From Patescibacteria group bacterium (GTDB lineage: Bacteria; Patescibacteriota; Patescibacteriia; SBBC01; CAIJZX01): a stretch of DNA of 64,000 nucleotides. Positions 13,234 to 62,685 of this stretch are shown here, in pieces. The position numbers and the translations under genes are program-made. The notes under the pieces are model-generated. The model saw nothing but the letters and a program-made list of their open reading frames with translations. It did no database searches and was not told the DNA's origin. The stretch covers positions 14,374 through 78,373 of the forward strand of contig JBBTRH010000012.1 of NCBI GenBank assembly GCA_038065275.1, given 5' to 3'. Position 1 is the stretch's first letter, and the number at the start of each line of letters is the position of its first letter.

Positions 13234-13345
13234 TCAACCCAGCACCGCTTTTACCATCAGTATTTTGGATTTCGTTTTTGCTACCAGCCGCAAGATCAAA
13301 TGACGCCACCCTGTGATGGTTATCAAAAGTGGTGCTGGGTCAAGT
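13234..13345. mobile_element. MITE/REPIN-like element copy A (diverged) with terminal inverted repeats gtcaacccagcaccgctttt / caaaagtggtgctgggtcaag
   Basis: terminal inverted repeats ~15/20 matched; same family as copies at 30791-30903 and 33229-33342. Confidence 0.5.
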
Positions 13346-21831: not shown

Positions 21832-23946
21832 TTACTTTATTTTCGGCACCAGCCAACCCACAATTAGAAGTAACAGTAACGAGGCGAGGCTAATGACCAG
21901 ACCGATGATCATACTTTGCGGCGCATAACGGAACGTCAGCGTGTGCGTTCCTTTGTCAACGGTGGCGCCGAGAAAGGCGTGATTGACGTTGAGTTGCGCG
22001 GCGCCGGCGTCATGGCCGTCAATCGACAGGCGCCATCCGGGATACGATTGAAGATTGGTCACGACCGCGGTTGATCCGGAGCTGGTGATGTGTAGTTGAA
22101 GTTTAGTAGCCGTGCGCTGAATGACGGCAACTGCGGTAGTCGCGTTGACATCAACCGCCGGCAGATCACCGGCTACTAATGCCGTCGTTGACGGATCAAT
22201 AGCGGATAGTTGCGACGGGTTCTGTTCGGGTATGAGTTTTTGTACGGCGTGAATTGCCGGCTGAGCATCAATTTTCTTCGCTAGCTTCCAGTCCCCGCTG
22301 GTAGTGATTGTTTCCCAACCGCTTGGCGCCGGATCCGACGTCAGCATCAGGTTCGCGCCGGCCACCGCTAACAGTTGCGGCGACGGATCTTTAACATGAA
22401 GTTGATTGCGTTGGCGAAGTTCCGCATTGGTCGACCACAGTTCGAGATACTGCTTCGGATAAACCGAATCATAACCCATCGCCACTGGAATATCATAAGG
22501 CATGAATTGATCGAGCGTACCGTTCGGCGTCCAGAGCGTCGTCCCGTCGCGCGTTTCCGCATACGCCCGGGTCAATAAATCGTTTTGCGGAAACAGTGTC
22601 GCCCGCGGCGCAAACGGCAGTATCCCCCACCACTGCCAGAGCATCGTTACGACAGTCATCCCCACCAGCGGCCACGCCCAGCGGCTCAAGCGCCGCCGGA
22701 AAAGTTCATTCGCGCCAATTCCAGTGAGCAGAGATAAAACGAAAATAAACATGAACGACGTCCGCCAGACCGGCGTGACGGTGATCCACGGCGCGATTTT
22801 ACCGACTACGTCCCACCAGCCGGGAAAAACGTATAATCCACCGATCAGGATCGCGGTCGCGGTCAGCCATCGCCACCACCATTTCCGCCAAGCTAAACAA
22901 GAGGCGGCGATAAATAATAAAGCCAACGGCCCGATGTACAGGTTGCCCTCGAGGTAATTGCCCGGCCCGCGATAATGCGCTTCGTTACCAAGCACGTTCT
23001 GGTCGACTATGGTCGCCAGCGACGCCGCTTGCTTAATGTTCGGTTTAAACAGTCGTTTCGGATTGAGCACCGTGCTCCACGTCCGGTGCGAGGGTTGGCG
23101 GTAGGCTTGGTCAAGCGCTTCCTTGACAGGCATCATCTGCACGGCGGTTAAACCTAAGCCGAGACTGAAGGCCAGCGTGAAGAGGAGCAGGCGACGCCGC
23201 CACTGATCGCATCGCCACCAGATGAGCGTCCAACCAACGGCCAACCCAAACGAAAACGCCGCGAGTTGAACATGGCCGGCGAAAATCATGACGGCGATGA
23301 GCGCGGATACCGTCGTGGTCGCCGACCAGGTCAGGCGTTCATGGAGCCGCAACACCGCCCACAACGCCCAGGGCAGGACAGCGATCACCGCGCTCATGGT
23401 CGTGACCGTCAGCCGCATCACGAACGGGGCGCTTAATGTCAGCGTCAGTCCGGCGATGATCCCGGCCGCCGGTTTCCACCCCAGCTGGCGCCCCAGAACG
23501 TATATCCCCAGGCCGCCGACAACTGATTGAAGCAACGTGACGATCGTAAAGCTCAGCCACGGCGCCAACCACCAGAACGGCAGTTTGAACAACGACCACA
23601 CGCCGGCTTGGCCGTTAGCAAAAAAAGTCGTGCCGTTAAAAATCAGATTGTTCCAGAGCGGTAAATGCCCCGACTGGATAGCCTTGGCGGCAAATAAATG
23701 ATACGGATAGGCCTGAACGATCCGGTCGCGGAAAATGCTCGACTGGGCCGGCTTATTCGGCGCTCCCCACATCAGACCGGGTATGGACCGGGTTGGCAGC
23801 GGCACATCGCCGCGGAATATTGGACCGAATAAAAAAAACGCTGCTCCCGCGATAATGAGAATCGCAATGGATAGCGGTGACCGGATTATCTTGGGTAGTG
23901 TTGCATACTTCGGCGGTTGCATGAATACAGTATACAACAATGTCAA
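21832..23946 (-). CDS. YfhO-family polytopic membrane protein (GT-C-like glycosyltransferase)
   Basis: signature HLPLWNNLIFNGTTFFANGQAGVWS resembles the YfhO LPLWNPY.FSG.P..AN.Q motif; >12 TM helices plus a C-terminal extracytoplasmic domain. Confidence 0.6.
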   Translation of the reverse strand: MTLLYTVFMQPPKYATLPKIIRSPLSIAILIIAGAAFFLFGPIFRGDVPLPTRSIPGLMWGAPNKPAQSSIFRDRIVQAYPYHLFAAKAIQSGHLPLWNNLIFNGTTFFANGQAGVWSLFKLPFWWLAPWLSFTIVTLLQSVVGGLGIYVLGRQLGWKPAAGIIAGLTLTLSAPFVMRLTVTTMSAVIAVLPWALWAVLRLHERLTWSATTTVSALIAVMIFAGHVQLAAFSFGLAVGWTLIWWRCDQWRRRLLLFTLAFSLGLGLTAVQMMPVKEALDQAYRQPSHRTWSTVLNPKRLFKPNIKQAASLATIVDQNVLGNEAHYRGPGNYLEGNLYIGPLALLFIAASCLAWRKWWWRWLTATAILIGGLYVFPGWWDVVGKIAPWITVTPVWRTSFMFIFVLSLLTGIGANELFRRRLSRWAWPLVGMTVVTMLWQWWGILPFAPRATLFPQNDLLTRAYAETRDGTTLWTPNGTLDQFMPYDIPVAMGYDSVYPKQYLELWSTNAELRQRNQLHVKDPSPQLLAVAGANLMLTSDPAPSGWETITTSGDWKLAKKIDAQPAIHAVQKLIPEQNPSQLSAIDPSTTALVAGDLPAVDVNATTAVAVIQRTATKLQLHITSSGSTAVVTNLQSYPGWRLSIDGHDAGAAQLNVNHAFLGATVDKGTHTLTFRYAPQSMIIGLVISLASLLLLLIVGWLVPKIK

Positions 23947-24034
23947 TTATCCCGCCCGGTTCAATAGGACGAATCGAATGACGGACCCAGGGGGATTTGT
24001 CCGGCAGAGCCGGATCCGGCCTGTCCCGCACACT

Positions 24035-24110
24035 GCGGACCGTACGGGAGTCGAACCCGTGGTCTCCTCCGTGACAGGGAGGCGTGTTAACCACTACACT
24101 AACGGTCCGC
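24035..24110 (-). tRNA. tRNA-Asp (anticodon GTC) with an atypical 9-bp acceptor helix (or a 2-nt bulge); no encoded CCA
   Basis: GCGGACCGT-TA-GTGT..ACAC-G-CCTCC-CTGTCAC-GGAGG-AGACC-ACGGG-TTCGACT-CCCGT-ACGGTCCGC-A; anticodon and T arms are close to E. coli tRNA-Asp. Confidence 0.7.
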
Positions 24111-24254
24111 ACTATGCGGGGCAGGCAGGGAGACGTGTTAACCGCTACACTATGAGCCCGCTCGGCGAATAAATGTTGTGACGTGCTATCCCCCGCAGAG
24201 TCGTAGCGAAGCGGAGACTTGTGCGGGGTTAACCACTGCACTTTGAGCCCATGT
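24111..24254 (-). repeat. two tandem partial copies of a tRNA 5' half (acceptor plus D-arm) immediately 5' of tRNA-Asp
   Basis: GGGCTCATAGTGTAGCGGTTAACACGTCTCCCTG and GGGCTCAAAGTGCAGTGGTTAACCCCGCA resemble GCGGACCGTTAGTGTAGTGGTTAACACGCCTCCCTG; neither folds into a complete cloverleaf. Confidence 0.5.
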
Positions 24255-24510
24255 AAAACACAAACTTGCGTCGGCGGGAGTTTATCATTGTGAGAGGATT
24301 TTGTCTACGGTAATGACCGGTCAACTGTTGGGTCAGACAACCTCAAGGTAATTTTGGCGCGCGGACGATCGGCCCACCCGCAACGGCGGGAGAGAATGAG
24401 ATACATCGTGCGCTTCGCCAACTTTTGCCGTTTCGGGTACGCCGGGATGCACTAAACCGTAAGAAAAACCGCCTCACCATCTCCCGAAGGAAACGATGAG
24501 ACGGGTGAGC

Positions 24511-24945
24511 TTACGCGATCTGAATCTCACGCAGGAACTTGACCTGGTCGCGGACTCCGGTGGTCCTGGCCGCCAAGGCGTTGAGAACCTTGTGCAGATT
24601 GTGACGGACCGGACCCACGAACGCTGATGGCAAAGAGTTGAAGCCCCCTCGCCATCCCAGGTACTGGTGCCGTAGCGCCCCGAAGTAGACGTCGATTGCG
24701 ACGTAGCACCCTGCTCTGCAGACATCCTCGTAGTTCCATCGAAACACGATTTGCGTCGGCACCGGGGCGTCGAACAGCCGCACGTCAAGAACGCGTTCAT
24801 CCTCTGGGACGTTCCACGACTTGAACATCTGCTCCAACGTCGGCAAGAGCGTCGACACGACCTGGCGGATTTCCCGCTGCTGACGGTCGAGCGCTTCAGA
24901 CGCGCGGAGTATCATCTCAACGTCGTTCATGGTGTACTCGGGCAT
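24511..24945 (-). CDS. hypothetical protein (144 aa)
   Basis: ORF only; last gene of the accessory module downstream of the 368-aa membrane protein. Confidence 0.4.
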   Translation of the reverse strand: MPEYTMNDVEMILRASEALDRQQREIRQVVSTLLPTLEQMFKSWNVPEDERVLDVRLFDAPVPTQIVFRWNYEDVCRAGCYVAIDVYFGALRHQYLGWRGGFNSLPSAFVGPVRHNLHKVLNALAARTTGVRDQVKFLREIQIA

Positions 24946-25344
24946 AGTCCTCTCCTTTGTCCTGTCTCCAGGACGACCCTCTCGGGTTATGGAGTGTGTG
25001 AAAGTGCTTCGACCGGTTTGGTCGGTGGGTTCTTATCATGTTGACGAGTTTTTGTCAATGCCCACCCTCTCCGCGTCGCACACTTCGCAAAGTTTATCCC
25101 GCACCCTTGTGGTGCGGGGCTCGTCTGCTTGCTCCCGTTCCAAAGAGTACTGGGGCGGCGTATGAAGCTCCGCCAGTCGCCGCTCAAGCGGGATCCCCCG
25201 CCTTTGGCGGGGTGACAGGAGCTGGCGATATCTATGGTTACACGGCGCGGAGCCACGTAGAAGCGGAGCACTTTACGTGGCGGAGCGGAATCCCGCATCC
25301 TTCCCGAACCTGTCCCGACCTGTCCTGAGCGAAGCCGAGGGAGC

Positions 25345-25420
25345 CGTGCAGGAGGACTGGTGTGTAGATAAAAAACACCGTCCAGCTCCATCTCCTCGAA
25401 AAGAGAAGTGGCGCTGGACG
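25345..25420 (-). terminator. intrinsic terminator (hairpin ccgtccagc..gctggacgg plus TGTTTTTTAT) followed by conserved CACACACCAG
   Basis: stem-loop plus U-run ~20 nt after the stop of the 368-aa membrane protein gene; near-identical 3' flank to the terminator at 28268-28340. Confidence 0.6.
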
Positions 25421-25437
25421 GGCTAGAGAAAGAACGG

Positions 25438-26544
25438 CTACTTACCCAGGATCCACCGGTAGGGGATCATGGGCTCATGGGACGGGTCCATGAAGTAGAG
25501 CCCGACCCACAAACCAGCGGCGATAAGGAGCACGATGACGACCGGGTGCATCCGTCGCGGCGATTTGATAAATCGCTGGCTCGGGAACATGTAGCCGGCG
25601 ACGGCGGTCGGCTGGGGTTCTGGCTTCTGGCTCTTGGTGGCGAGCTTGATCGCGTAGATCACTTCGATCCCCACGACTCCCACCATGATGACCCGCGCCC
25701 AGAAATTACCATCCATGATCGGATCGTAGAGCTCTTCACGGAAGATAGCCAGGAGAGCGATGTCGATCAGGTAGAAGACCCCGGCCCAGAGAATCCAGGT
25801 ATATTGAGTTCCCCGCTTCAGCCATGGTTCCGCCAGCGGAATCATGAAGAACAGCGGAATGACCGGCAGGGCCATGGGGATCAGCCCCGGTGTCTGGTGC
25901 AACGGTACGAGGATGACGTACAGCACCCCGACCGCGTACCAGATGCAGATCATGGCCATCCACTTCCAAAAGTTGAGCACCCAGCTGATGCTGGGCGGAA
26001 CCTGCTTGATTCCCCCAAAGACAATCTGGAAAGGATTACGCAGGTTCTCCGTCGCTGACTTGGCCGCGGCCGCATCGATTGCGCCGATGGCCGCGCCGAT
26101 GCCGATGATAACCGGAATCCAGCGCACCCACAGGTCGTGCGTGATGTAGACGACCAGGACAATCCCGGCCGTCCCCACCAAGCCGCGAACCCCTCCCCAC
26201 GGGACATAGGCCACCGTTAGAAGCGACAGCGCGGCCGCCAATACAATCAGTCCGATGGCTCGGAGGATCGCTCGTCGGAACTGTTCGTAGGCGTGGACCG
26301 ACCATCCCGTAACATCCCTGGCGATCGGACCGCCTTCAATGCCGATCCGCTCGAAGGCATGGCCGGTCAGTCCAGCCAGATGCCCGACTATCTGACGACC
26401 CTGCTCCTCGCGGAGGAAGACCGTCACGATCGTGCCGACCAGACCGAGCTTACCAAGTTGCCAGACGTCATTGAACGCCTGGCCGATAGCTTGACTGAAC
26501 GTCAGTCGATCGGCCTTCGGGTCTTTCTGCTTGTCATCGGCCAT
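25438..26544 (-). CDS. polytopic membrane protein (368 aa), paralog of 28350..29198 (shared C-terminal P..MIP..WI.GK motif)
   Basis: ~9 TM helices; C-terminus PSHEPMIPYRWILGK compared with PGKPSSMIPSSWIMGKK in the paralog; start overlaps the stop of the upstream gene. Confidence 0.5.
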   Translation of the reverse strand: MADDKQKDPKADRLTFSQAIGQAFNDVWQLGKLGLVGTIVTVFLREEQGRQIVGHLAGLTGHAFERIGIEGGPIARDVTGWSVHAYEQFRRAILRAIGLIVLAAALSLLTVAYVPWGGVRGLVGTAGIVLVVYITHDLWVRWIPVIIGIGAAIGAIDAAAAKSATENLRNPFQIVFGGIKQVPPSISWVLNFWKWMAMICIWYAVGVLYVILVPLHQTPGLIPMALPVIPLFFMIPLAEPWLKRGTQYTWILWAGVFYLIDIALLAIFREELYDPIMDGNFWARVIMVGVVGIEVIYAIKLATKSQKPEPQPTAVAGYMFPSQRFIKSPRRMHPVVIVLLIAAGLWVGLYFMDPSHEPMIPYRWILGK

Positions 26545-26545
26545 G

Positions 26546-27929
26546 TTACCTCACCTCCTCAACGGTAGAAGACGCGTATCGCACCCGGATATCCGTGGTG
26601 CCGCGTCGACCTTGCCGGTCGCGGACCTCGACTCGAATGGTGTTCCATTCGGGCTTGAGACCCTTGACCTCGGTCGTCCATTCGACGGTTGACCCCGACG
26701 CCATGAAAACATTCCGCGGCATCTGGTCGTTCAGCCTGACCGTCAGCCTGCTCACTCGACGATCATCAGTCGCTTGACCGATCAGACGGATAGACGGCGT
26801 TGAGACCACGACCCCATCGTCCGGGGAAATGATCATCACGTGGGGAACCTCGTTCTGGCACCCGGTGGCGAACAGTCCAGCCGCGAGTGAAATCCCTACC
26901 AGTCCCACGAACACGACGGTTATCACCCAGCCGAGCCAGGGGCCTCGCGGGCGCGGAACCTCCCGACGCTCTTCCGGACATTCCGGCTCACGCTTGCGCC
27001 AAGGGTAACGCTCGAGATTCTCGGGCGTGTACCGATCCTCTTCAATCGCCGCCTCGCGCTCGGCATTGCACTCGACCATCCATTCGTTAGCGTCCCCGAG
27101 TCCCTGGTTGATGTCGCGCAGGACGCGACGTCCGTACCGAGCCACCTGCCGACGCCAGCGCCGGAACTCCTCTTCCTTACCTGGAGACATCAGCCGCAAT
27201 TTGTTGGCCTCCGTCATCTCCAGGAAAATCTGCCGCTCTCTCGGCGTCATCTTCAGAAAGTGGATCAGCGTTTCCGGTGTAGGGAAGAACTTGTCCAGAC
27301 GAATGAACTCATGCTTCTGCTGAGGAGTCCACCGGCCCCACATCTTGACCAAGGTCTTCCAGTCCTCGTCCTCGAGCCCGAGAATCGAACCGATGATCTG
27401 GTCAGACTGACCGAGACCAAGGGTGTCGATCACCCGAGCGAGGTTGAATCGCGAAGCCAGCCTGGCCAGCGCTGAGTTCGAGATCCGCTTGGCCATGAAA
27501 TCCCCGACTTCCCGGAAAATGTGCTTGACATCATCCACACCCGGTGGCGTGAAGCCTTCCGGATATTCATCCGGGTACTTCGGCTTGACCTTCATGGTCT
27601 CGAAGTAGTTGTTGATCTCGTTGGCGGCATCTGCCATGAGAGCAATACCGAGATCTTGGAAGATCTTCAGGGCCGGGGAGGCCTTGATCGCGATCTCGAT
27701 CGGCAGGAGCATGAAGCGCAAACCTGCGTCGACCGCGTCCTTGACACGATTTTCGGCCTCCAGGTAGAGGTAGGCCACCTTGTGCCACAGCATTGAGTGC
27801 TTGCGACGCAAGTAGTCGAGCGTACCGATGATGGTGGCGCGACTGATCTTCAGCGCGTAGCCAGTCCAGATCGACGAGGTCCGTTCGATGATCCCCGCGA
27901 CTCCTTCGTTATCGCGTTTCTTTGCCACG
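26546..27929 (-). CDS. membrane-anchored hypothetical protein: ~330-aa cytoplasmic domain, one TM helix, ~110-aa beta-rich extracytoplasmic C-terminal domain
   Basis: GTG at 27929 preceded by AAGGAAAGGAG; TM WLGWVITVVFVGLVGISLAAGLFA; the longer track ORF reads through the promoter region and is not supported. Confidence 0.5.
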
Positions 27930-28030
27930 ACCGACTCCTTTCCTTGCGACCAGGACGCTCCCGGCCTAGGAAACTGCCGTCCATGGACAACTCCGCCCTT
28001 CATCCGTGAAGGGCTGTTGATACATCGCAT

Positions 28031-28093
28031 GTTGTCAATCTGCGATCCTTTGCAGTTACCCGCAACACTACCAGATAATTCGATTTTGTCAAC
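28031..28093 (-). promoter_or_regulatory. conserved promoter/leader motif copy 1: -35 TTGACA (28087-28092), 16-nt spacer, -10 TAGTGT (28065-28070), then conserved leader GCGGGTAACTGCAAAGGATCGCAGATTGACAAC
   Basis: ~60 bp, ~85% identical to 30733-30796; sigma70-like spacing. Confidence 0.6.
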
Positions 28094-28267
28094 TATAGTT
28101 TTCCGAGTGAAGCTCCACGACTTTGCGGCCGTGCCATTTTGGAATACGGAGTTTTGGGGAGCGAAACTTTCCCCGCCACGAAGGGTGCAGGACAAGAACC
28201 CCGAACCAGTTATGGTTCGGGGCCGCACCGTCCCACCCGTTACTCCGAAACTATACGGCGGAGGCGG

Positions 28268-28340
28268 AACTGGTGTGTGAATAAAAAAACACCGCCCGCG
28301 AACGAAGTCCGAGATTCGGACCACGTTCGGGGCGGGTTGG
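28268..28340 (-). terminator. intrinsic terminator (stem ccgccccgaacg..cgttcgcgggcgg enclosing gtccgagattcggac, then TGTTTTTTTAT) followed by CACACACCAG
   Basis: hairpin plus U-run ~15 nt after the stop of the 282-aa membrane protein gene. Confidence 0.6.
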
Positions 28341-28349
28341 TGAAAGAGC

Positions 28350-29198
28350 TTACTTCTTCCCCATAATCCACGAGGAGGGAATCATGGAGGATGGTTTTCC
28401 AGGGGCGGGGTGGGTGACGTTGTTCATCACCCACATCCCGACGATGATGATGACGGCGCCGAATAACGCCACCGGTAGCAGGTTTTTGATCGGCGATGGG
28501 GCGCCGACCGGCACGTTCCGGAACAGCACCCACTGCGCGGCCGTCACCAATACCAGTCCGCCAAACAGGACATAGAGAGGCAGGATTGGCGGTCGCTGTG
28601 AAAGAAACACAGCGATAATCCAGACCAGCAACCCAACGCTGAGGCAGATCCAGATCAGGCCCTCGACGGTGTTGAAGAAGCCCTGCCAGACGCCGCCGGT
28701 CTTTGGGATGACCGGCTTCGGCTGGGTACTGCTGGAGGTACCTGTCGATTTGACTTTGCGGCGTTGGCGGAACCAGACAACTAGGGTCACCAGCGCTACA
28801 CTACCACCGATCCACGCCCCCCAGAACAGCATGTCGTGCGAGGAAAGGCGCGGCCAGTTGAAATGCAGTAACGTGATTTGCGTACTCGCATTCTTCAGTT
28901 TCGTCGCCAGGATCACGGCGACGATGATGGTCAGCGGGAAGGTCTTTTGCCATCCCGACGAATGTTGCCACCATCCTTGGAGTCTCTTGACCACGGACGG
29001 TGACGGCCGCCACATCCACAGTCCGTAGCCGATGGCTGACAGGCCGAGCGCTGAGCCAACAATCCGCACTACCGGATTGTTGAAGTGGGTCAAGATCGAC
29101 CAGAGAGCACCGATGATCAGCGCCACGACGATCGTTCCCACCACAATGATGTTGAGGGCGGCGGCGACTGGTCGCCACCCTGGAAACTTGAGAGCCAT
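28350..29198 (-). CDS. polytopic membrane protein (282 aa), paralog of 25438..26544
   Basis: ~8 TM helices; shared C-terminal motif; 19 nt downstream of the flotillin gene, so co-operonic. Confidence 0.5.
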   Translation of the reverse strand: MALKFPGWRPVAAALNIIVVGTIVVALIIGALWSILTHFNNPVVRIVGSALGLSAIGYGLWMWRPSPSVVKRLQGWWQHSSGWQKTFPLTIIVAVILATKLKNASTQITLLHFNWPRLSSHDMLFWGAWIGGSVALVTLVVWFRQRRKVKSTGTSSSTQPKPVIPKTGGVWQGFFNTVEGLIWICLSVGLLVWIIAVFLSQRPPILPLYVLFGGLVLVTAAQWVLFRNVPVGAPSPIKNLLPVALFGAVIIIVGMWVMNNVTHPAPGKPSSMIPSSWIMGKK

Positions 29199-29216
29199 GC
29201 TCCCCTCCTCTCGAGG

Positions 29217-30662
29217 TTACGAGGTCGGGGGAGACTCGGCGCCACCCACGACCTTCTTGAGTTTTGCCGCCAAGTCCTTCGGATCCCTCTCGCCCAGCTG
29301 TCGAAGCTCTTCGAACAGCGGGGCAAACGGAGTGAACTGCGCCGGCAACTGCAGATAGACGGTCCGACCCTCGGTAGTCAGACCCGTACGGTAGGCTTCG
29401 GTGGCGAACCACCGCAGAAACGCGTCGCGTCCGGCTTCATCCGGTTGCTCACCGATCGAGAAGCCGGTGATCCGTGATACCGCTGCCACCTGGTCGGCCG
29501 CCGCCACAACTTTGATGCGTTCAGCATCCGCACCGGCAATCTTCTTGATTCGATCAGCTTCGGCGACAGCCACTTTCTCGATGGCCGCCGCTTTGCCTTC
29601 GGCTTCCAAGATGGCCTGGTTCCTGCTGGTCTGCGCCTCGACCAAGCGTCCAGCCTGTTCGGCTTTCTTCTTGGCGAACGCCTCGGCCGCCCGTTCGATC
29701 TCGCCGCTGACTTCCTGGGCGTCCTTGACGACCGCATTGGCGATGAAGATGCCCCAATCACGGAGTACCCGACTCCGGATTATGCTCTTACCAGGGTCGT
29801 CATCACTACAAAAAAGCTTGTAATCATTGTACTTAACAATCCGGTCCCTAGGATTCACGCCCAGATCGTCTTGAAGTTCCTGCTGAATCTTATCCAGCAG
29901 ACCGCTTCGCTCGAACCTGACGATGTCGGCGACCTGGCCGCCCTCGACGGAAACGACATTGACCAGCTCCAGCTCGGCTGTCTTGGCGCGTATCACCGGG
30001 TCGATCAGGCCCTTCAGGTCGTCCTGGAAGTTCCGGGCCCGGGCAATCATGTCATCAGGCACGATAATCTGAACATACAGCGTGACGTGCAAGTTTATCT
30101 CGATTTGGTCCTTCGACCGCATCGATGGCATGTACGCCAGCTTGTCTGCCTCGTCCGGGGTGAGGTAGGCCACCCCCTCGTCCTTTCTCGCATCTCGCGC
30201 CGTAAAAGACGCTCGCGCTTCCTCCGCCTTCTTGCGCAAGGCCTGTAGTTCTGCTTCCGGGGGCTGAAACGGAAATTCCAACCGCAGGATCTGCATCGGC
30301 ACGGCGTGCCGAGTGCCGCCACGCACGTACTCGTGGTACTGCGTGGGAGTCCAGGCCGCCAAACGGAATCGGTTGGTCGGAAAGCCGACCCGGACCAAAC
30401 CGGGGTGGCCCTTACGAACCCGATAGTGCGATCTGCCATTCGCCGCCAGGTCATCGTAAAACTTTCGCCACGAATCATCGAGCGGATTGACCTCCACCCG
30501 ACAAATGTTGTCGCCATCGACGACGAGGTAAGCGAAGTTCGTCTTCATCCTCGCCACCCAAAATCCTCGATCGGCCCACTTGTACAGCACCCAGTCAATG
30601 AGCAGGCGCGCCGCCCAGCCCACGACCAGGATGAAGCCGAACCACAACAACCACGTGATCAT
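29217..30662 (-). CDS. SPFH/band-7 flotillin-like protein (YqiK/FloT-type): N-terminal TM anchor, SPFH domain, Ala/Glu-rich coiled-coil repeats
   Basis: ATG 30662 preceded by GAGGAG; TM MITWLLWFGFILVVGWAARLL; coiled-coil EAEGKAAAIEKVAVAEADRIKKIAGADAERIKVVAAADQ typical of flotillins. Confidence 0.75.
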   Translation of the reverse strand: MITWLLWFGFILVVGWAARLLIDWVLYKWADRGFWVARMKTNFAYLVVDGDNICRVEVNPLDDSWRKFYDDLAANGRSHYRVRKGHPGLVRVGFPTNRFRLAAWTPTQYHEYVRGGTRHAVPMQILRLEFPFQPPEAELQALRKKAEEARASFTARDARKDEGVAYLTPDEADKLAYMPSMRSKDQIEINLHVTLYVQIIVPDDMIARARNFQDDLKGLIDPVIRAKTAELELVNVVSVEGGQVADIVRFERSGLLDKIQQELQDDLGVNPRDRIVKYNDYKLFCSDDDPGKSIIRSRVLRDWGIFIANAVVKDAQEVSGEIERAAEAFAKKKAEQAGRLVEAQTSRNQAILEAEGKAAAIEKVAVAEADRIKKIAGADAERIKVVAAADQVAAVSRITGFSIGEQPDEAGRDAFLRWFATEAYRTGLTTEGRTVYLQLPAQFTPFAPLFEELRQLGERDPKDLAAKLKKVVGGAESPPTS

Positions 30663-30732
30663 ATCGGACTCCTCTCGCGCGTTTGGAGAAACCCCAAAGC
30701 CCGCGCTATTTGCGCGTGCTCGTTTATATTCA

Positions 30733-30796
30733 ATTGTCAATTTACTATCCCTTACAGTAACCCGCGACACTACCAGATAATTCGATTTTTGTCAAC
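30733..30796 (-). promoter_or_regulatory. conserved promoter/leader motif copy 2: -35 TTGACA (30790-30795), 17-nt spacer, -10 TAGTGT (30767-30772); the -35 overlaps the terminal repeat of MITE copy B
   Basis: aligns with 28031-28093 over ~60 bp. Confidence 0.6.
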
Positions 30797-30903
30797 CCAG
30801 CACCACTTTGGCTAAAACAGTGCTTTTTTTGACCAAAGTTTTCTATGTGGATAAGCAAGTTTTTCCATCTATCTGAGAATCAACCAAAGTAGTGCTGGGT
30901 CAA
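30791..30903. mobile_element. MITE/REPIN-like element copy B: 21-bp terminal inverted repeats gtcaacccagcaccactttgg / ccaaagtagtgctgggtcaac, ~70-bp AT-rich core
   Basis: 20/21 terminal-repeat match; the core is weakly similar to the reverse complement of copy C. Confidence 0.6.
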
Positions 30904-31775
30904 CCACCGCCTTTTTCCCACCCGCCGTGTCCGTCCGTCTTCAATTGTACATCACCCCGCTCATCCGTGCGCCAGATAGTCAAACCCGCTTGCTTCAGCC
31001 GCAACAGCGCCGTCGGATGCGGATGATAATATCGGTTTCCCGCGCCGACGGAGATCACCGCCCAGGTCGCATTCACCGCCTGCAACCAGCGCACGCTGGA
31101 AGAAAATCGCGAGCCGTGGTGACCGACTTTCAGCAGGCCGGCCCGGACATCGGCGCCGCCATCAAGAATCCGGTCCTCAATGTCGCTCGACGCGTCGCCC
31201 ATCAGCATGGCCGAACTGCCGCCGCAGGAGAGCTTCAGAACAACTGAGGCGTCATTGACTCCCCCGCCTTCCGCCGCATTGTCACCGACGATATTTTTCT
31301 TGGTCAGGTCCTGGGCTGGCCAGAGAACATCGAACGTGGCCGCGCCAACAACGTATCGCTGACCGGCCAGTGCGTTGGTAACCGGAACATGTTGTTCGCC
31401 GAGCAAGGCGTGCCAAGTTTCGTACGCCCGTTGCTGGTACGGCAGGCTCGTGGCGAGCACGCGGCGGACCGTAAACCGCTCGGCCACCGCCACCAGTCCA
31501 TTCACATGATCGGCGTGCGGGTGAGTCAGCACCATCAATTCGATATCGCGGTCGCCGGCCGGCAACGCTTGGCTTAATCGATCGACCACGGTGTCATCCG
31601 GACCGCCATCGATTAGAATATCCTGATGGTCGCTCGTTTGGATGAGAATGGCATCACCTTGGCCGACATCAAGCGCCGTGAACGTGCATGCCTGATATAC
31701 CCCCCGGGGGTATATCCAAACCACCGCCAGCAGAACAGCGGCGGCACTAAGTAGAAGAAGTTTTTTGCGCATCAC
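30900..31775 (-). CDS. MBL-fold metallo-hydrolase matching the ComEC/Rec2 C-terminal lactamase domain, as a separate ORF with its own N-terminal TM/signal helix
   Basis: LDVGQGDAILIQT.., LTHPHADHVNGL, HHGS motifs; overlaps the upstream ComEC membrane ORF by 29 nt in a different frame. Confidence 0.7.
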   Translation of the reverse strand: MMRKKLLLLSAAAVLLAVVWIYPRGVYQACTFTALDVGQGDAILIQTSDHQDILIDGGPDDTVVDRLSQALPAGDRDIELMVLTHPHADHVNGLVAVAERFTVRRVLATSLPYQQRAYETWHALLGEQHVPVTNALAGQRYVVGAATFDVLWPAQDLTKKNIVGDNAAEGGGVNDASVVLKLSCGGSSAMLMGDASSDIEDRILDGGADVRAGLLKVGHHGSRFSSSVRWLQAVNATWAVISVGAGNRYYHPHPTALLRLKQAGLTIWRTDERGDVQLKTDGHGGWEKGGG

Positions 31776-33186
31776 GAGTAATTAATTTAATTGCCAGGGC
31801 GACAAAGACCAGACCGCTAAAAATTGTTACGGCCGGGGCCAAGTAGATCAAGGCGTTCGGTAGCGACGCGCCGGTAGTAATCAACCACACAATTAACCGT
31901 AACAAGGCGTCACTCACCGGTACAGTCACCGGCGCCAGCCAGGGAATCCACAGCCCCAGCAAACTGACCGCCCCGACGGCCATTGACAGCGGAATCAACG
32001 GCAGGACCAGGGTGTTCACCAGGGGCGCCACTAGCGACAATCGCCCGAACCGCCACAGCAACAACGGTTCGGTCATGACGATGGCGGCCAGGGTGGTGGC
32101 GAGATTATCGCGCAACCCGAACTTGGCGGATACCCACGGCAAAACCGCCGTCATTGGTTTCGACAGCGCCACCAACCCGACCGTTGCCAGGAACGATAAC
32201 TGAAAACCAAGGTCGTGCCAGACGATCAACGGATTCACGATCGCCATCAATAGCGCCGTGTAGGCCAACAATCGCCCGACGTTGATCGGGCGGCCGATGA
32301 ACAGCCCGACTTGCACCACTACGGCCATGATCGCCGCTCGCACGACTGACGCCGAAGCGCCGCTCATGACCACAAACGCAATCAGTAATCCCAGCGCCGG
32401 TATCCACGCCCAGCGCCGACCAATTAACTTAACTAACCAATTGACTGCCATCGCCATGATGATCGTCACATTAAATCCCGACAATGCCACAATATGCGTT
32501 GTCCCCGTTGCCTGAAATGCCGTGTTCAGCCGATCCGGCATGCCGTCCGTGTTGCCGACCAGGATGCCGTTGAGCAACGACGCTTGCGGTTCGTTGTACT
32601 GCTGGCGGACGTAGGTCAGCAGGCGTTCCTGCCACCGCCCGAGCGTCGCCCGCCATGATACGAGATGGCGCCGGACAACATCAACCGTCAAAGTGGCGCA
32701 ACGGGCATGAACGCCGTGCGACCACCGCCGGCGTTGCGATATCTCGGTCAGCGCCGTTATTTCACACGTCACCCGAACTTGCGTTCCCGCGCGAATGGTC
32801 GGGATCGCCGGAACTGACACAAGAATTTTCCCAACCATAGGCTTGCCGCTGGCAGTGACATCAGTCAGTTCAAACCGTTGCGCCGTCCCGTCAATCGTCG
32901 ACGGCAGAACCACTTCGCCCTCGGCCGTCATCGTTTGTCCGACGTAGCGGCTGATGTCATTCGCCGCGACGGTCAAAGCGCCGCCCATCCGCCAAACACC
33001 GAGCATCGCGCCAAGCAACGCTACGCTCACCCACCGCCCGCGGCGGACGCTCAACAGCGCCACGGCGATACTGCCCGCCGCCACAGTCAGCGGTGTCGGC
33101 GCGCGCCAAACCTCACCGGCGGCTAATCCGGCGCAAAATGAAGTTAAGAATACAAACAACAGCGGCCTGGACATAATGTTGGCCAC
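31747..33186 (-). CDS. comEC: ComEC/Rec2-like competence membrane channel (DUF4131 plus Competence domains) lacking the fused lactamase domain
   Basis: N-terminal TM then OB-like region, then ~8 TM helices with ComEC-typical spacing. Confidence 0.65.
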   Translation of the reverse strand: MANIMSRPLLFVFLTSFCAGLAAGEVWRAPTPLTVAAGSIAVALLSVRRGRWVSVALLGAMLGVWRMGGALTVAANDISRYVGQTMTAEGEVVLPSTIDGTAQRFELTDVTASGKPMVGKILVSVPAIPTIRAGTQVRVTCEITALTEISQRRRWSHGVHARCATLTVDVVRRHLVSWRATLGRWQERLLTYVRQQYNEPQASLLNGILVGNTDGMPDRLNTAFQATGTTHIVALSGFNVTIIMAMAVNWLVKLIGRRWAWIPALGLLIAFVVMSGASASVVRAAIMAVVVQVGLFIGRPINVGRLLAYTALLMAIVNPLIVWHDLGFQLSFLATVGLVALSKPMTAVLPWVSAKFGLRDNLATTLAAIVMTEPLLLWRFGRLSLVAPLVNTLVLPLIPLSMAVGAVSLLGLWIPWLAPVTVPVSDALLRLIVWLITTGASLPNALIYLAPAVTIFSGLVFVALAIKLITRDAQKTSST

Positions 33187-33228: not shown

Positions 33229-33342
33229 GTCAACCCAGCACCACTTTGGTTGAATTGTCGTTATTTCCTCAAATGCTCATTTTAGAACCAAAAACATTTC
33301 TTTGTCAGAACACCATTTGAGCCAAAGTGGTGCTGGGTCAAC
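33229..33342. mobile_element. MITE/REPIN-like element copy C: perfect 21-bp terminal inverted repeats gtcaacccagcaccactttgg / ccaaagtggtgctgggtcaac
   Basis: 21/21 terminal-repeat match; 72-bp AT-rich core. Confidence 0.65.
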
Positions 33343-61989: not shown

Positions 61990-62345
61990 GTTTCTTGGCG
62001 GCCTAACTCCGCTGCACCATCTATCCACTGGTGGTCGCACCCCGCAGAACACTCACTTTGTTCGTGTCTACGGGGCAGGCCTGGGCTCGAACCAGGGACC
62101 TTACGGATGTGACGGCGCGCTCCCCGGCCCGCTTCGCCTGCGGTTAAAATTAGTAAATAGTTTCTGGTGGGGATGAGAGGATTCGGACCTCTGACCTTTC
62201 CGACCCCGCTGGTGGTCGCACCTGGGCTCGAACCAGGGACCTTACGGATGTGAACCGTACGCTCTGACCAACTGAGTCCCGACGTTCCGTGCGACGGAAG
62301 TCGGGATCCCGACTCTCGCTTAGCGAGACGTCGGGACTACTGTCA
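61990..62345 (-). other. three tandem tRNA-like modules ending ..ACCA (T-arm GGTTCGAGCCC/GGTCCGAATCC plus acceptor 3' strand), one with a TTCACAT anticodon-like loop; none folds into a canonical cloverleaf
   Basis: minus strand: ..GUACGG-UUCACAU-CCGUA-AGGUC-CCUGG-UUCGAGC-CCAGG-GUGCGACCACCA; mini GGGGUCGGAAAGGUCAGAGGUCCGAAUCCUCUCAUCCCCACCA; third copy has a 40-nt hairpin between T-arm and 3' acceptor. Confidence 0.45.
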
Positions 62346-62608: not shown

Positions 62609-62685
62609 TGGTGGCCACTGCTGGATTCGGACCAGCGACCTCACCGATGTGAACGGTGCGCTCTAACCGACTGAGCTAAGTGGCC
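62609..62685 (-). tRNA. tRNA-Val (anticodon CAC) with encoded CCA
   Basis: GGCCACT-TA-GCTCAGTCGGTTAGAGC-G-CACCG-TTCACAT-CGGTG-AGGTC-GCTGG-TCCGAAT-CCAGC-AGTGGCC-A-CCA; all stems are Watson-Crick paired. Confidence 0.85.

Follow-up and report, generated by a model that had tools for sequence, protein, structure and literature searches.

A locus in a 64-kb stretch of DNA from a Patescibacteria group bacterium (GenBank assembly GCA_038065275.1, contig JBBTRH010000012.1, positions 14,374 to 78,373; the whole stretch analysed is referred to as the window) raises the question why two neighbouring two-gene operons for membrane proteins should share their promoters as well as their terminators. The original prediction for this locus regarded the operons as duplicates and proposed a co-regulated flotillin-plus-partner system for membrane microdomains or envelope stress. 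Comparison with related contigs leads to another reading, which is judged probable while falling well short of certainty: the operons would occupy an accessory cassette slot of a Kerfeldbacteria-like chromosome, at which alternative units are exchanged, and the window would hold a type-1 unit before a resident type-2 unit. Searches within the host DNA covered the 64 kb of the window, out of a genome of ~0.8 Mb.

All genes between 21.8 and 33.2 kb are located on the minus strand, and the two operons (module 1, A1 and B1; module 2, A2 and B2) are transcribed in the order A1-B1-A2-B2. A1 (29217..30662, minus) encodes a divergent SPFH/Band-7 protein of 481 amino acids (aa), B1 (28350..29198, minus) a polytopic membrane protein of 282 aa, A2 (26546..27928, minus; GTG start) a protein of 460 aa, and B2 (25438..26544, minus) a further polytopic protein of 368 aa, whose start codon lies 1 nucleotide (nt) past the A2 stop. 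B2 is identical to AAB402_03170 from a metagenome-assembled genome (MAG) of a Patescibacteria group bacterium. The four genes and the homologous promoter and terminator flanks of the two same-layout operons had been recognised correctly from the outset; for A2 the gene stands, and its coordinates (26546..27929, 461 aa) were off by one. Upstream of A1 lies lactB (30900-31775, minus), the Lactamase_B open reading frame (ORF) of a comEC operon, and the nearest genomes by lactB carry the label Candidatus Kerfeldbacteria.

The coding regions bear little trace of common ancestry. B1 and B2 align in BLASTP over their last 44 aa only (E=0.014; hhalign probability 6.4%), and A1 and A2 (hhalign probability 1.9%) have one 11-mer in common, WTPxQxHE[FY]xR, which in view of that probability was rejected as a sign of homology. 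Since similarity is confined to these pieces, neither A1/A2 nor B1/B2 are detectable paralogues, and the operons have in common their layout and their non-coding and terminal flanks alone. Thus, the proposal that the polytopic proteins are paralogs does not survive their pairwise alignment, which gave the very outcome named beforehand as refuting it, whereas the C-terminal motif ascribed to them, MIPxxWIxGK, was found in both.

The promoter/leader repeat, initially described as ~85% identical over ~60 bp and built around TTGACA-16/17-TAGTGT, was recovered with 88% identity over 56 nt (28032-28087 versus 30734-30789; 87% over 63 nt by BLAST). Each block opens with TTGACA and a 16/17-nt spacer that terminates in TGG; TAGTGT comes next, then ~26 nt of leader sequence and finally a further TTGACAA box. 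In P1, the 5' arm before A1 (30734..30795, minus), the -35 hexamer TTGACA (30795-30790) is followed by a 17-nt spacer ending in TGG, the -10 hexamer TAGTGT (30772-30767), the leader start and TTGACAA (30740-30734); in P2, the arm copy before A2 (28032..28104, minus), the corresponding elements are TTGACA (28092-28087), a 16-nt spacer, TAGTGT (28070-28065) and TTGACAA (28038-28032). Both are predicted promoters that fit the sigma-70-type spacing rule (-35 and -10 hexamers at 16-18 nt) with TGG preceding each -10; their -10 hexamers match the consensus at 3 of 6 positions, and a promoter scanner listed neither. Transcription is predicted to start at ~30760 (P1) and ~28058 (P2). Pattern searches allowing up to 3 mismatches returned two copies of the repeat in the 64 kb, against an expectation of 0 from shuffled sequences. 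Further copies of the promoter motif (ATTATCTGNTAGTGTNGCGGGTNACTG) numbered 0 within the window and 0 in Joint Genome Institute (JGI) metagenome contigs, so that in the window the motif stands only at these two gene starts and the regulon suggested earlier did not emerge from the sequences searched.

At the other end, similarity of the two operons sets in ~35 nt before each stop, at the MIPxxWIxGK codons, and continues through the terminator (alignment score 33, versus -8 ± 4.7 for shuffles). Copy 1 of this 3' arm (28270..28387, minus) comprises the B1 motif tail, the stop codon, terminator T1 (hairpin 28288-28338 and U-run) and CACACACCAG, the last 12 codons of B1 (SSMIPSSWIMGKK) falling within it; copy 2 (25357..25472, minus) consists likewise of the B2 motif tail (EPMIPYRWILGK), the stop codon, terminator T2 (hairpin 25374-25424 and U-run) and CACACACCAG. 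T1 (-36.4 kcal/mol, z -6.85, then U7) and T2 (-32.8 kcal/mol, z -6.79, then U6) both combine a stable GC-rich hairpin with a U-run and are predicted intrinsic terminators; long loops and inner stems let them escape a simple terminator scanner. The sequence that they had been reported to share is indeed restricted to them, the string GGTGTTTTTTAT..ACACACCAG occurring only at 25357-25379 and 28270-28292.

What these arms enclose in other genomes was assessed on contigs of relatives (L numbers), which were retrieved via homologs of A1, A2 and B2 and with lactB as anchor; a lactB anchor search of metagenome contigs yielded one uninformative 1.8-kb fragment. The slot, defined as the interval from lactB to tRNA-Asp and the YfhO-family gene yfhO, holds only an SPFH-type pair in L003/L004, L016, L018, L019 and the contig of P0001; gene order in L003/L004 is release factor-comEC-lactB-A1-like gene-partner-tRNA-Asp-yfhO-L20. 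Only a class-2 pair, i.e. the A2-B2 type, is present in L005-L010, L013 and L014. No cassette adjoins lactB in L012, where tRNA-Asp follows directly, nor in L011, where other genes do. Both types in tandem are found in the window genome only, together with contigs L001 and L002.

Close relatives delimit the exchanged segment sharply. L006 matches the window with 93% (ComEC) and 95% (LactB) aa identity, and L005 with 98% (YfhO) and 97% (orf144, a gene of the right flank), whereas in L005-L007 the B protein is 34% identical to B2 and the A protein (332 aa, no Ig domain) ~21% to A2 and undetectable by tblastn. At the DNA level, identity of 92.7-98% to L005, L006 and L007 ends at 30924 and in all three resumes exactly at 25602, with unalignable sequence between; between 25602 and 16442 the window and L005 agree at 97-98% of positions. 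Position 25602, the right-hand recombination breakpoint, is located inside B2, 54 codons before its end, so that the last 54 aa of B2, including its last transmembrane (TM) helix and tail, belong to the conserved right flank. L014 (LactB 89%, A2 90%) possesses the type-2 unit only, and homology jumps from 30918 to 28104, where P2 similarity begins; the segment 30917-28105, comprising a miniature inverted-repeat transposable element (MITE), P1, A1, B1, T1 and the T1-P2 spacer (28105..28269, minus), is present in the window and absent from L014. The spacer harbours a second small GC hairpin (28199-28222) and has no counterpart in L014. Overall, breakpoints lie at 30924/30918, where lactB reaches its stop, and at 28104 and 25602. 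Flanks of 93-98% identity around cassettes that are 20-34% identical or unalignable, together with alternative occupants and empty sites, characterize a replacement-type variable locus. The single promoter of L014 had also been considered as crossover evidence, its 5' sites being P1-like and its 3' sites P2-like; this was rejected for too few informative sites and a P2-like upstream flank.

Each slot occupant would accordingly constitute one self-contained transcription unit of extended -10 sigma-70-type promoter, leader, gene A, gene B and strong intrinsic terminator, where the product of A would be anchored in the membrane and carry a large cytoplasmic domain, and that of B would be a polytopic membrane protein. 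Two unrelated kinds at least are represented: type 1 has a very divergent SPFH protein as A; type 2 combines an A that is helical, tail-anchored and in some cases equipped with an Ig-like ectodomain with a B of ~8 TM helices. Homologous recombination with imported DNA would move units from lineage to lineage, with left crossovers in the 3' end of lactB or the promoter and right crossovers in the terminator and the final codons of B before it; the window is the one case seen in which a type-1 unit (30917-28105) stands ahead of the resident type-2 unit. Because the window carries two units in a row, both the promoter arm and the 3' arm are present twice, in diverged form. Given that in relatives one of the two modules is found at this position, the shared promoter and the shared C-terminal peptide and terminator are best read, as far as sequence comparison can tell, as inherited arms for cassette exchange and not as parts of an envelope-stress circuit. 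The near-identical core promoters should result in similar transcription, which would be a by-product of common descent and is no evidence for a regulon. The nearest full-length B1 relative (L017_279) stops just short of where the B1 motif tail starts, which suggests that this tail was acquired together with the 3' arm.

Two of the alternatives concern the tandem itself. If it had arisen by tandem duplication, yielding paralogous flotillin-plus-partner modules of a co-regulated microdomain or envelope-stress system and possibly a regulon, one would expect precisely such promoter blocks with 88% identity and a second TTGACAA at equal distance, homologous terminators and a C-terminal motif common to both B proteins, and the near-identical core promoters would entail similar transcription whatever their origin. 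The coding sequences would, however, have had to diverge past recognition (A1/A2 unrelated at 1.9%, B1/B2 related in the last 44 aa only at 6%) while the non-coding flanks were kept at 63-88%; moreover, the leaders differ beyond ~30 nt, relatives alternate between the modules, and a third copy of the motif is missing from the sequences searched. The duplication and the stress system built upon it are therefore considered improbable. An assembly artefact, in which two coexisting strains were stitched together via the shared repeats, might be suspected at a locus that is strain-variable within one aquifer (L002, L005 and L007 stem from Hainich samples) and whose repeats share an exact 23-mer. 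Yet the tandem is given alike by the 84-kb NCBI MAG contig, by L001 (Logan assembly, run ERR3858126; 100% identical to the window over 9.9 kb) and by L002 (ENA assembly ERZ1292631, Hain_H32_02um; 99.95%, spanning B1, T1, spacer, P2 and A2); furthermore, a unique spacer of 164 nt would not exist in an assembly bubble, and the longest exact repeat is far below usual final k-mers. As L001 and L002 come from two other assemblies, the tandem is real, and an artefact would be an extremely remote prospect.

The other two alternatives accept the tandem and differ in its history. An ancestral tandem, from which lineages lost type 1 by recombination between promoter arms or type 2 by recombination between 3' arms, would explain why the segments absent in relatives are bounded precisely by direct repeats of ~60 nt and ~120 nt and why the slot of deep-branching relatives (LactB 46-58% identical) also holds SPFH-type units; the flank-like divergence of A1 from its L003 homolog and the lactB stop of L019, which overlaps the -35 box as it would in a window without the MITE, also agree with it. 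It demands several independent losses in the type-2 subclade (L005-7, L008, L010, L013, L014), nevertheless needs cassette exchange for the type-2-for-type-2 replacement in L005-7, and is at odds with L014, in which the sequence upstream of P2 and not that of P1 is found, unlike a P1xP2 deletion product. This course of events is regarded as rather unlikely. Integration of a mobile element at tRNA-Asp, with either module 2 plus orf144 or module 1 as cargo and the repeats as scars resembling attachment sites, would be in keeping with the 5'-half of another tRNA-Asp allele and the second tRNA-like piece in front of tRNA-Asp, with the varying orientation of tRNA-Asp among relatives, and with an SPFH and B1-like gene pair beside genes resembling a type IV secretion system (T4SS) elsewhere. 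Between lactB and yfhO, however, no integrase, excisionase or transposase was found; the tRNA pieces adjoin the tRNA instead of marking the far end and are identical in L005 despite its different cassette, and the variable segment stops at 25602, 1.4 kb from the tRNA, without compositional anomaly. The block with its bounding repeats did not turn up at any further tRNA gene or on contigs of plasmids or phages (viral contigs were not profile-searched), and the integrative element is deemed very unlikely. In line with this, GC content and skew over the region revealed no anomaly, and a compositional island was rejected as both are normal.

Several observations weigh against the cassette slot as preferred here. 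In L006 the promoter itself is inside the replaced segment and can thus not always have served as left arm. A1 is 39% identical to its L003 homolog while the flanks are 42-47% identical, a similar divergence according to which A1-B1 could have been inherited vertically and lost in close relatives. Neither recombinase, integrase nor repeat machinery is present, and a donor of A1-B1 is not known among the sequences searched, the nearest A1 homolog being 57% identical. PADLOC, PHROGs and NCBIfam yielded 0 matches for all five proteins and hence no indication of function, and the two AlphaFold models obtained were unusable. Finally, the comparison comprises ~12 independent relatives, mostly on short contigs. 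Whether type 1 was gained or retained in the window lineage is viewed differently by different data: close relatives without type 1 and the distance to the nearest A1 homolog favour a gain, the flank-like divergence of A1 from L003 and the overlap of lactB stop and -35 box in L019 a retention.

A more far-reaching version of the cassette slot would be a dedicated exchange site behind comEC, in which complete units of scaffold and partner, from promoter to terminator, are swapped in frame via a coding arm (last TM helix of B and its extracellular MIPxxW tail) and via the promoter or the end of lactB. This would amount to a new cassette-diversified membrane immunity or host-recognition system, with either an SPFH cage or an unrelated helical scaffold; it is put forward as a speculation and regarded as rather unlikely. 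The arm on which it draws is recognisable (motif codons, stop, hairpin and T-run) in L010 (lactB 80%), L005 and both window copies, and M[IL]PxxW comes after the final TM helix, or after the one before it, in B2, P0005, P0006, L010_382 and L013_445, is degenerate in P0004 and also occurs in B1.

The identity of A1 is of relevance for what a type-1 unit might do. The protein possesses one N-terminal TM helix (residues 4-22), the rest being predicted as cytoplasmic, and reaches 24.2 bits against the Pfam Band_7 model (cut-off 23.6); its relatives attain 19.7-31.5 bits over the same part of the model. A profile of the family (10 sequences) detected QmcA (8z5g; 1.2e-12), PH stomatin (1.1e-6), flotillin-2 (1.2e-4) and HflC (0.009), with profile positions 254-452 aligned to QmcA 107-300 including the helical wall region, and no flotillin-specific Pfam family was reported for A1. 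Judged from these profiles, A1 is a very divergent SPFH protein nearer to QmcA/stomatin than to flotillin; of the initial label 'SPFH/flotillin', the first half holds and the second is to be dropped. Homologs are rare, with 2 among 5.8 billion proteins in a word-indexed search and 14 among 1.84 billion cluster representatives in an exhaustive profile search. A single-sequence PDB search had returned the Aap G5 domain (0.002) and QmcA (0.55), which were set aside as noise in favour of the family profile. The AlphaFold2 model of A1 from a 3-sequence alignment (predicted local distance difference test, pLDDT, 37; predicted template-modelling score, pTM, 0.21) was too poor for a fold search.

B1 has about 5-6 TM helices, and its core is related to L017_279 (35%, E=1e-16) and to the N-terminus of L003_461 (27%). 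NfeD was not matched (E<=0.1) by B1 or by the partners encoded in L003, L016, L017 and L018. As had been anticipated for the partner proteins, A2, B1 and B2 display no known relatives in the searches performed. The relative L017_279 belongs to MAG GCA_964383765.1, whose lactB/tRNA-Asp slot is empty (L012) and which contains an SPFH-like gene (P0009) plus a B1-like gene of 279 aa elsewhere (L017 6001-8522). Neighbours of the latter pair are PrgI-, TraC- and VirB4/TraG-like genes as well as genes for giant fn3 proteins. Judging by this neighbourhood, an SPFH-type pair can apparently move together with a T4SS-like module or function in its service. Although labelled 'Gammaproteobacteria', the MAG has a Patescibacteria-like gene order; the slot-side site is at L012 10807-10995.

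A2 consists of an all-helical N-terminal region of ~330 aa (predicted cytoplasmic), a TM helix (335-353) and a C-terminal Ig-like domain of the Big_7 family (predicted outside), the latter being lacking in the A2 relatives of L006, L010 and L013. Nothing similar to A2 was found in PDB, Pfam, NCBIfam, PHROGs or PADLOC, its family profile gave nothing below E=0.5 against PDB, and its AlphaFold model (4 sequences; pLDDT 49) was too poor for a fold search. B2 is predicted to have about 8 TM helices. By analogy with characterized SPFH proteins, A1 may assemble into an oligomeric cage on the cytoplasmic side of the membrane and thereby confine B1, and an analogous scaffold-client pair may be represented by A2/B2; both suggestions are made with low confidence. 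That the units are dispensable and quickly replaced suggests a function subject to diversifying selection. The preferred guess, equally tentative, is that they keep phage or foreign DNA out at the membrane, with host-cell contact as the alternative; PADLOC assigned none of the proteins to a described defence family, and the literature yielded nothing that links SPFH proteins to defence systems or deals with this locus in Kerfeldbacteria.

The layout of P1 and P2 recurs in L003, L006, L008-L010, L013, L014, L016, L018 and L019, and all slot promoters examined contain TTGACA(A), a TAGT-like -10 and the second TTGACAA. The latter lies 51-73 nt downstream of the -35 hexamer in every slot promoter, including those of relatives with LactB 46-58% identical to that of the window. 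Its interpretation as a tandem promoter was rejected, as a -10 at usable distance is missing in each of 12 loci. Past the first ~30 transcribed nt, the leaders of the two modules are wholly different. The module-1 leader (30663..30733, minus) contains a small CGCGC/GCGCG hairpin and the Shine-Dalgarno sequence GAGAGGAG, and a leader with this type of hairpin stands before the class-2 gene in L010; the leaders are thus mosaic among cassettes. The class-2 leader (27929..28031, minus) forms three conserved hairpins and is ~85% conserved in L008, L009 and L014, whereas the coding sequences there are only ~70% identical. One of its hairpins shows a compensatory CG-to-UA change, the minimum free energy is -50.7 kcal/mol (z -2.8), and in the last stem UUCCU pairs with AAGGA of the Shine-Dalgarno region. 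A match in Rfam was not obtained; the class-2 leader may be a translational control element.

The MITE-like element at 30795..30900, which had been placed correctly on one side of the operons, measures 106 bp and has terminal inverted repeats of 16-17 nt (CCCAGCACCACTTTGG; 17 nt at 94% complementarity), bordered by TTGA on either side; on the left, this tetranucleotide overlaps the stop codon of lactB. Inverted termini, short size, lack of an ORF, more than one copy and TTGA flanks as target-site duplication agree with a MITE. A second full copy is located at 33234-33337 before comEC, a solo end at 13324-13339, and the element is absent at this junction in L006 and L014. At both full copies, the -35 box of the operon that follows begins with the right TTGA, in P1 for the SPFH unit and in a TTGACA-N17-TATAGT promoter for comEC; the element apparently either targets -35 boxes or re-creates them. 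The comEC gene is split into two ORFs overlapping by 29 nt (31747-31775), DUF4131/Competence (31747-33186, minus) followed by lactB, a split seen in all relatives examined. Upstream of the release-factor/comEC region, a direct repeat of 65 nt (34660-34724/34784-34848) has copies that are 75% identical and 124 nt apart.

On the other side of the operons, tRNA-Asp (24035-24108, minus) is the sole Rfam match within 23500-31500 and precedes the YfhO-family gene (21832-23946, minus). Upstream of it, a tRNA-Asp 5'-half fragment (24126-24159, minus) and a second tRNA-like piece (24184-24250, minus) confirm the tRNA fragments noticed earlier. The 5'-half derives from a different tRNA-Asp allele, which is intact and functional in L010 (5720-5990). 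The arrangement of pieces is the same in L005 (2385-2528) and similar in the distant L016 (downstream of 9840), and tRNA-Asp is inverted relative to lactB in L010, L012, L013 and L019. Pieces and inversions together indicate repeated rearrangement at tRNA-Asp without an integrase nearby. Between B2 and these pieces, orf144 (24511..24945, minus) forms a separate unit in the conserved right flank with its own promoter (~25057-25029) and terminator (24504-24469); it is 97% identical in L005/L007 and matched no family. Its promoter (TTGACAAAAACTCGTCAACATGATAAGAA) resembles one at 24279-24307 that faces the tRNA-like pieces. Farther away, tRNA-Val (62609-62685, minus) is followed by two identical 33-nt copies resembling a tRNA 3'-half (62080-62112 and 62221-62253), which are 79% identical to the matching part of tRNA-Val and could be remnants of integration at a second tRNA.

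With respect to its wider meaning, the locus offers a compact, sharply bounded case of strain-level cassette replacement in a genome of the Candidate Phyla Radiation (CPR), i.e. in uncultured episymbionts with reduced genomes. To our knowledge, almost nothing is known on strain variation of the envelope or on phage resistance in CPR/Patescibacteria. The slot adjoins the DNA-uptake gene comEC, which could supply the incoming DNA, and its occupants include three protein families without characterised relatives as well as an SPFH lineage that ranks among the most divergent recorded. Data from the Hainich aquifer make it a concrete target for population-genomic and metatranscriptomic study. As a caution for similar cases, shared promoters may represent inherited recombination arms and not a regulon.

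Compared with known systems, module 1 resembles SPFH operons such as QmcA-YbbJ(NfeD) and HflK/C-FtsH, in which the SPFH gene is usually co-transcribed with that of a membrane protein (SPFH-NfeD operons): A1 has an N-terminal TM anchor and a core that aligns to QmcA and PH stomatin, and it is co-transcribed with B1. Unlike NfeD partners, B1 is polytopic without an OB domain and does not match PF01957; A1 is extremely divergent, has an extra segment of ~130 aa between TM helix and SPFH core and no flotillin-specific domain, and the A1-B1 pair is accessory and swappable. The phage-exclusion pair RexA/RexB of lambda, a cytoplasmic sensor with a polytopic membrane effector, provides an analogy in mechanism only, as A and B likewise combine a large cytoplasm-facing with a small-loop polytopic protein and are accessory with fast turnover; differences are the lack of sequence kinship (none in PADLOC) and of a phage context and the membrane anchor of the A proteins. 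Polymorphic toxin and contact-dependent inhibition (CDI) loci contain tandem 'orphan' cassettes, i.e. alternative modules in a row that short homologous stretches allow to be swapped, and the window modules also stand in tandem, each with a short copy of the flanks of which one is an in-frame coding stretch. In contrast to orphan cassettes, both window units are full promoter-bearing operons without detected toxin or immunity domains, and the conserved coding piece is C-terminal, not N-terminal. Replacement-type flexible genomic islands, which harbour non-homologous gene sets per strain at one locus (O-antigen and capsule loci), are distinguished from the present slot by its tiny size (2 genes, 2-2.8 kb), by its constant promoter-A-B-terminator layout in every allele, by a breakpoint inside B that keeps the last TM helix and tail constant, by products that are mostly cytoplasmic or intramembrane instead of enzymes for surface polysaccharides, and by the CPR host. 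What both have in common are the sharp bounds, flanks of 93-98% identity around content that is 20-34% identical or unrelated, and the occurrence of alternative as well as empty sites among relatives.

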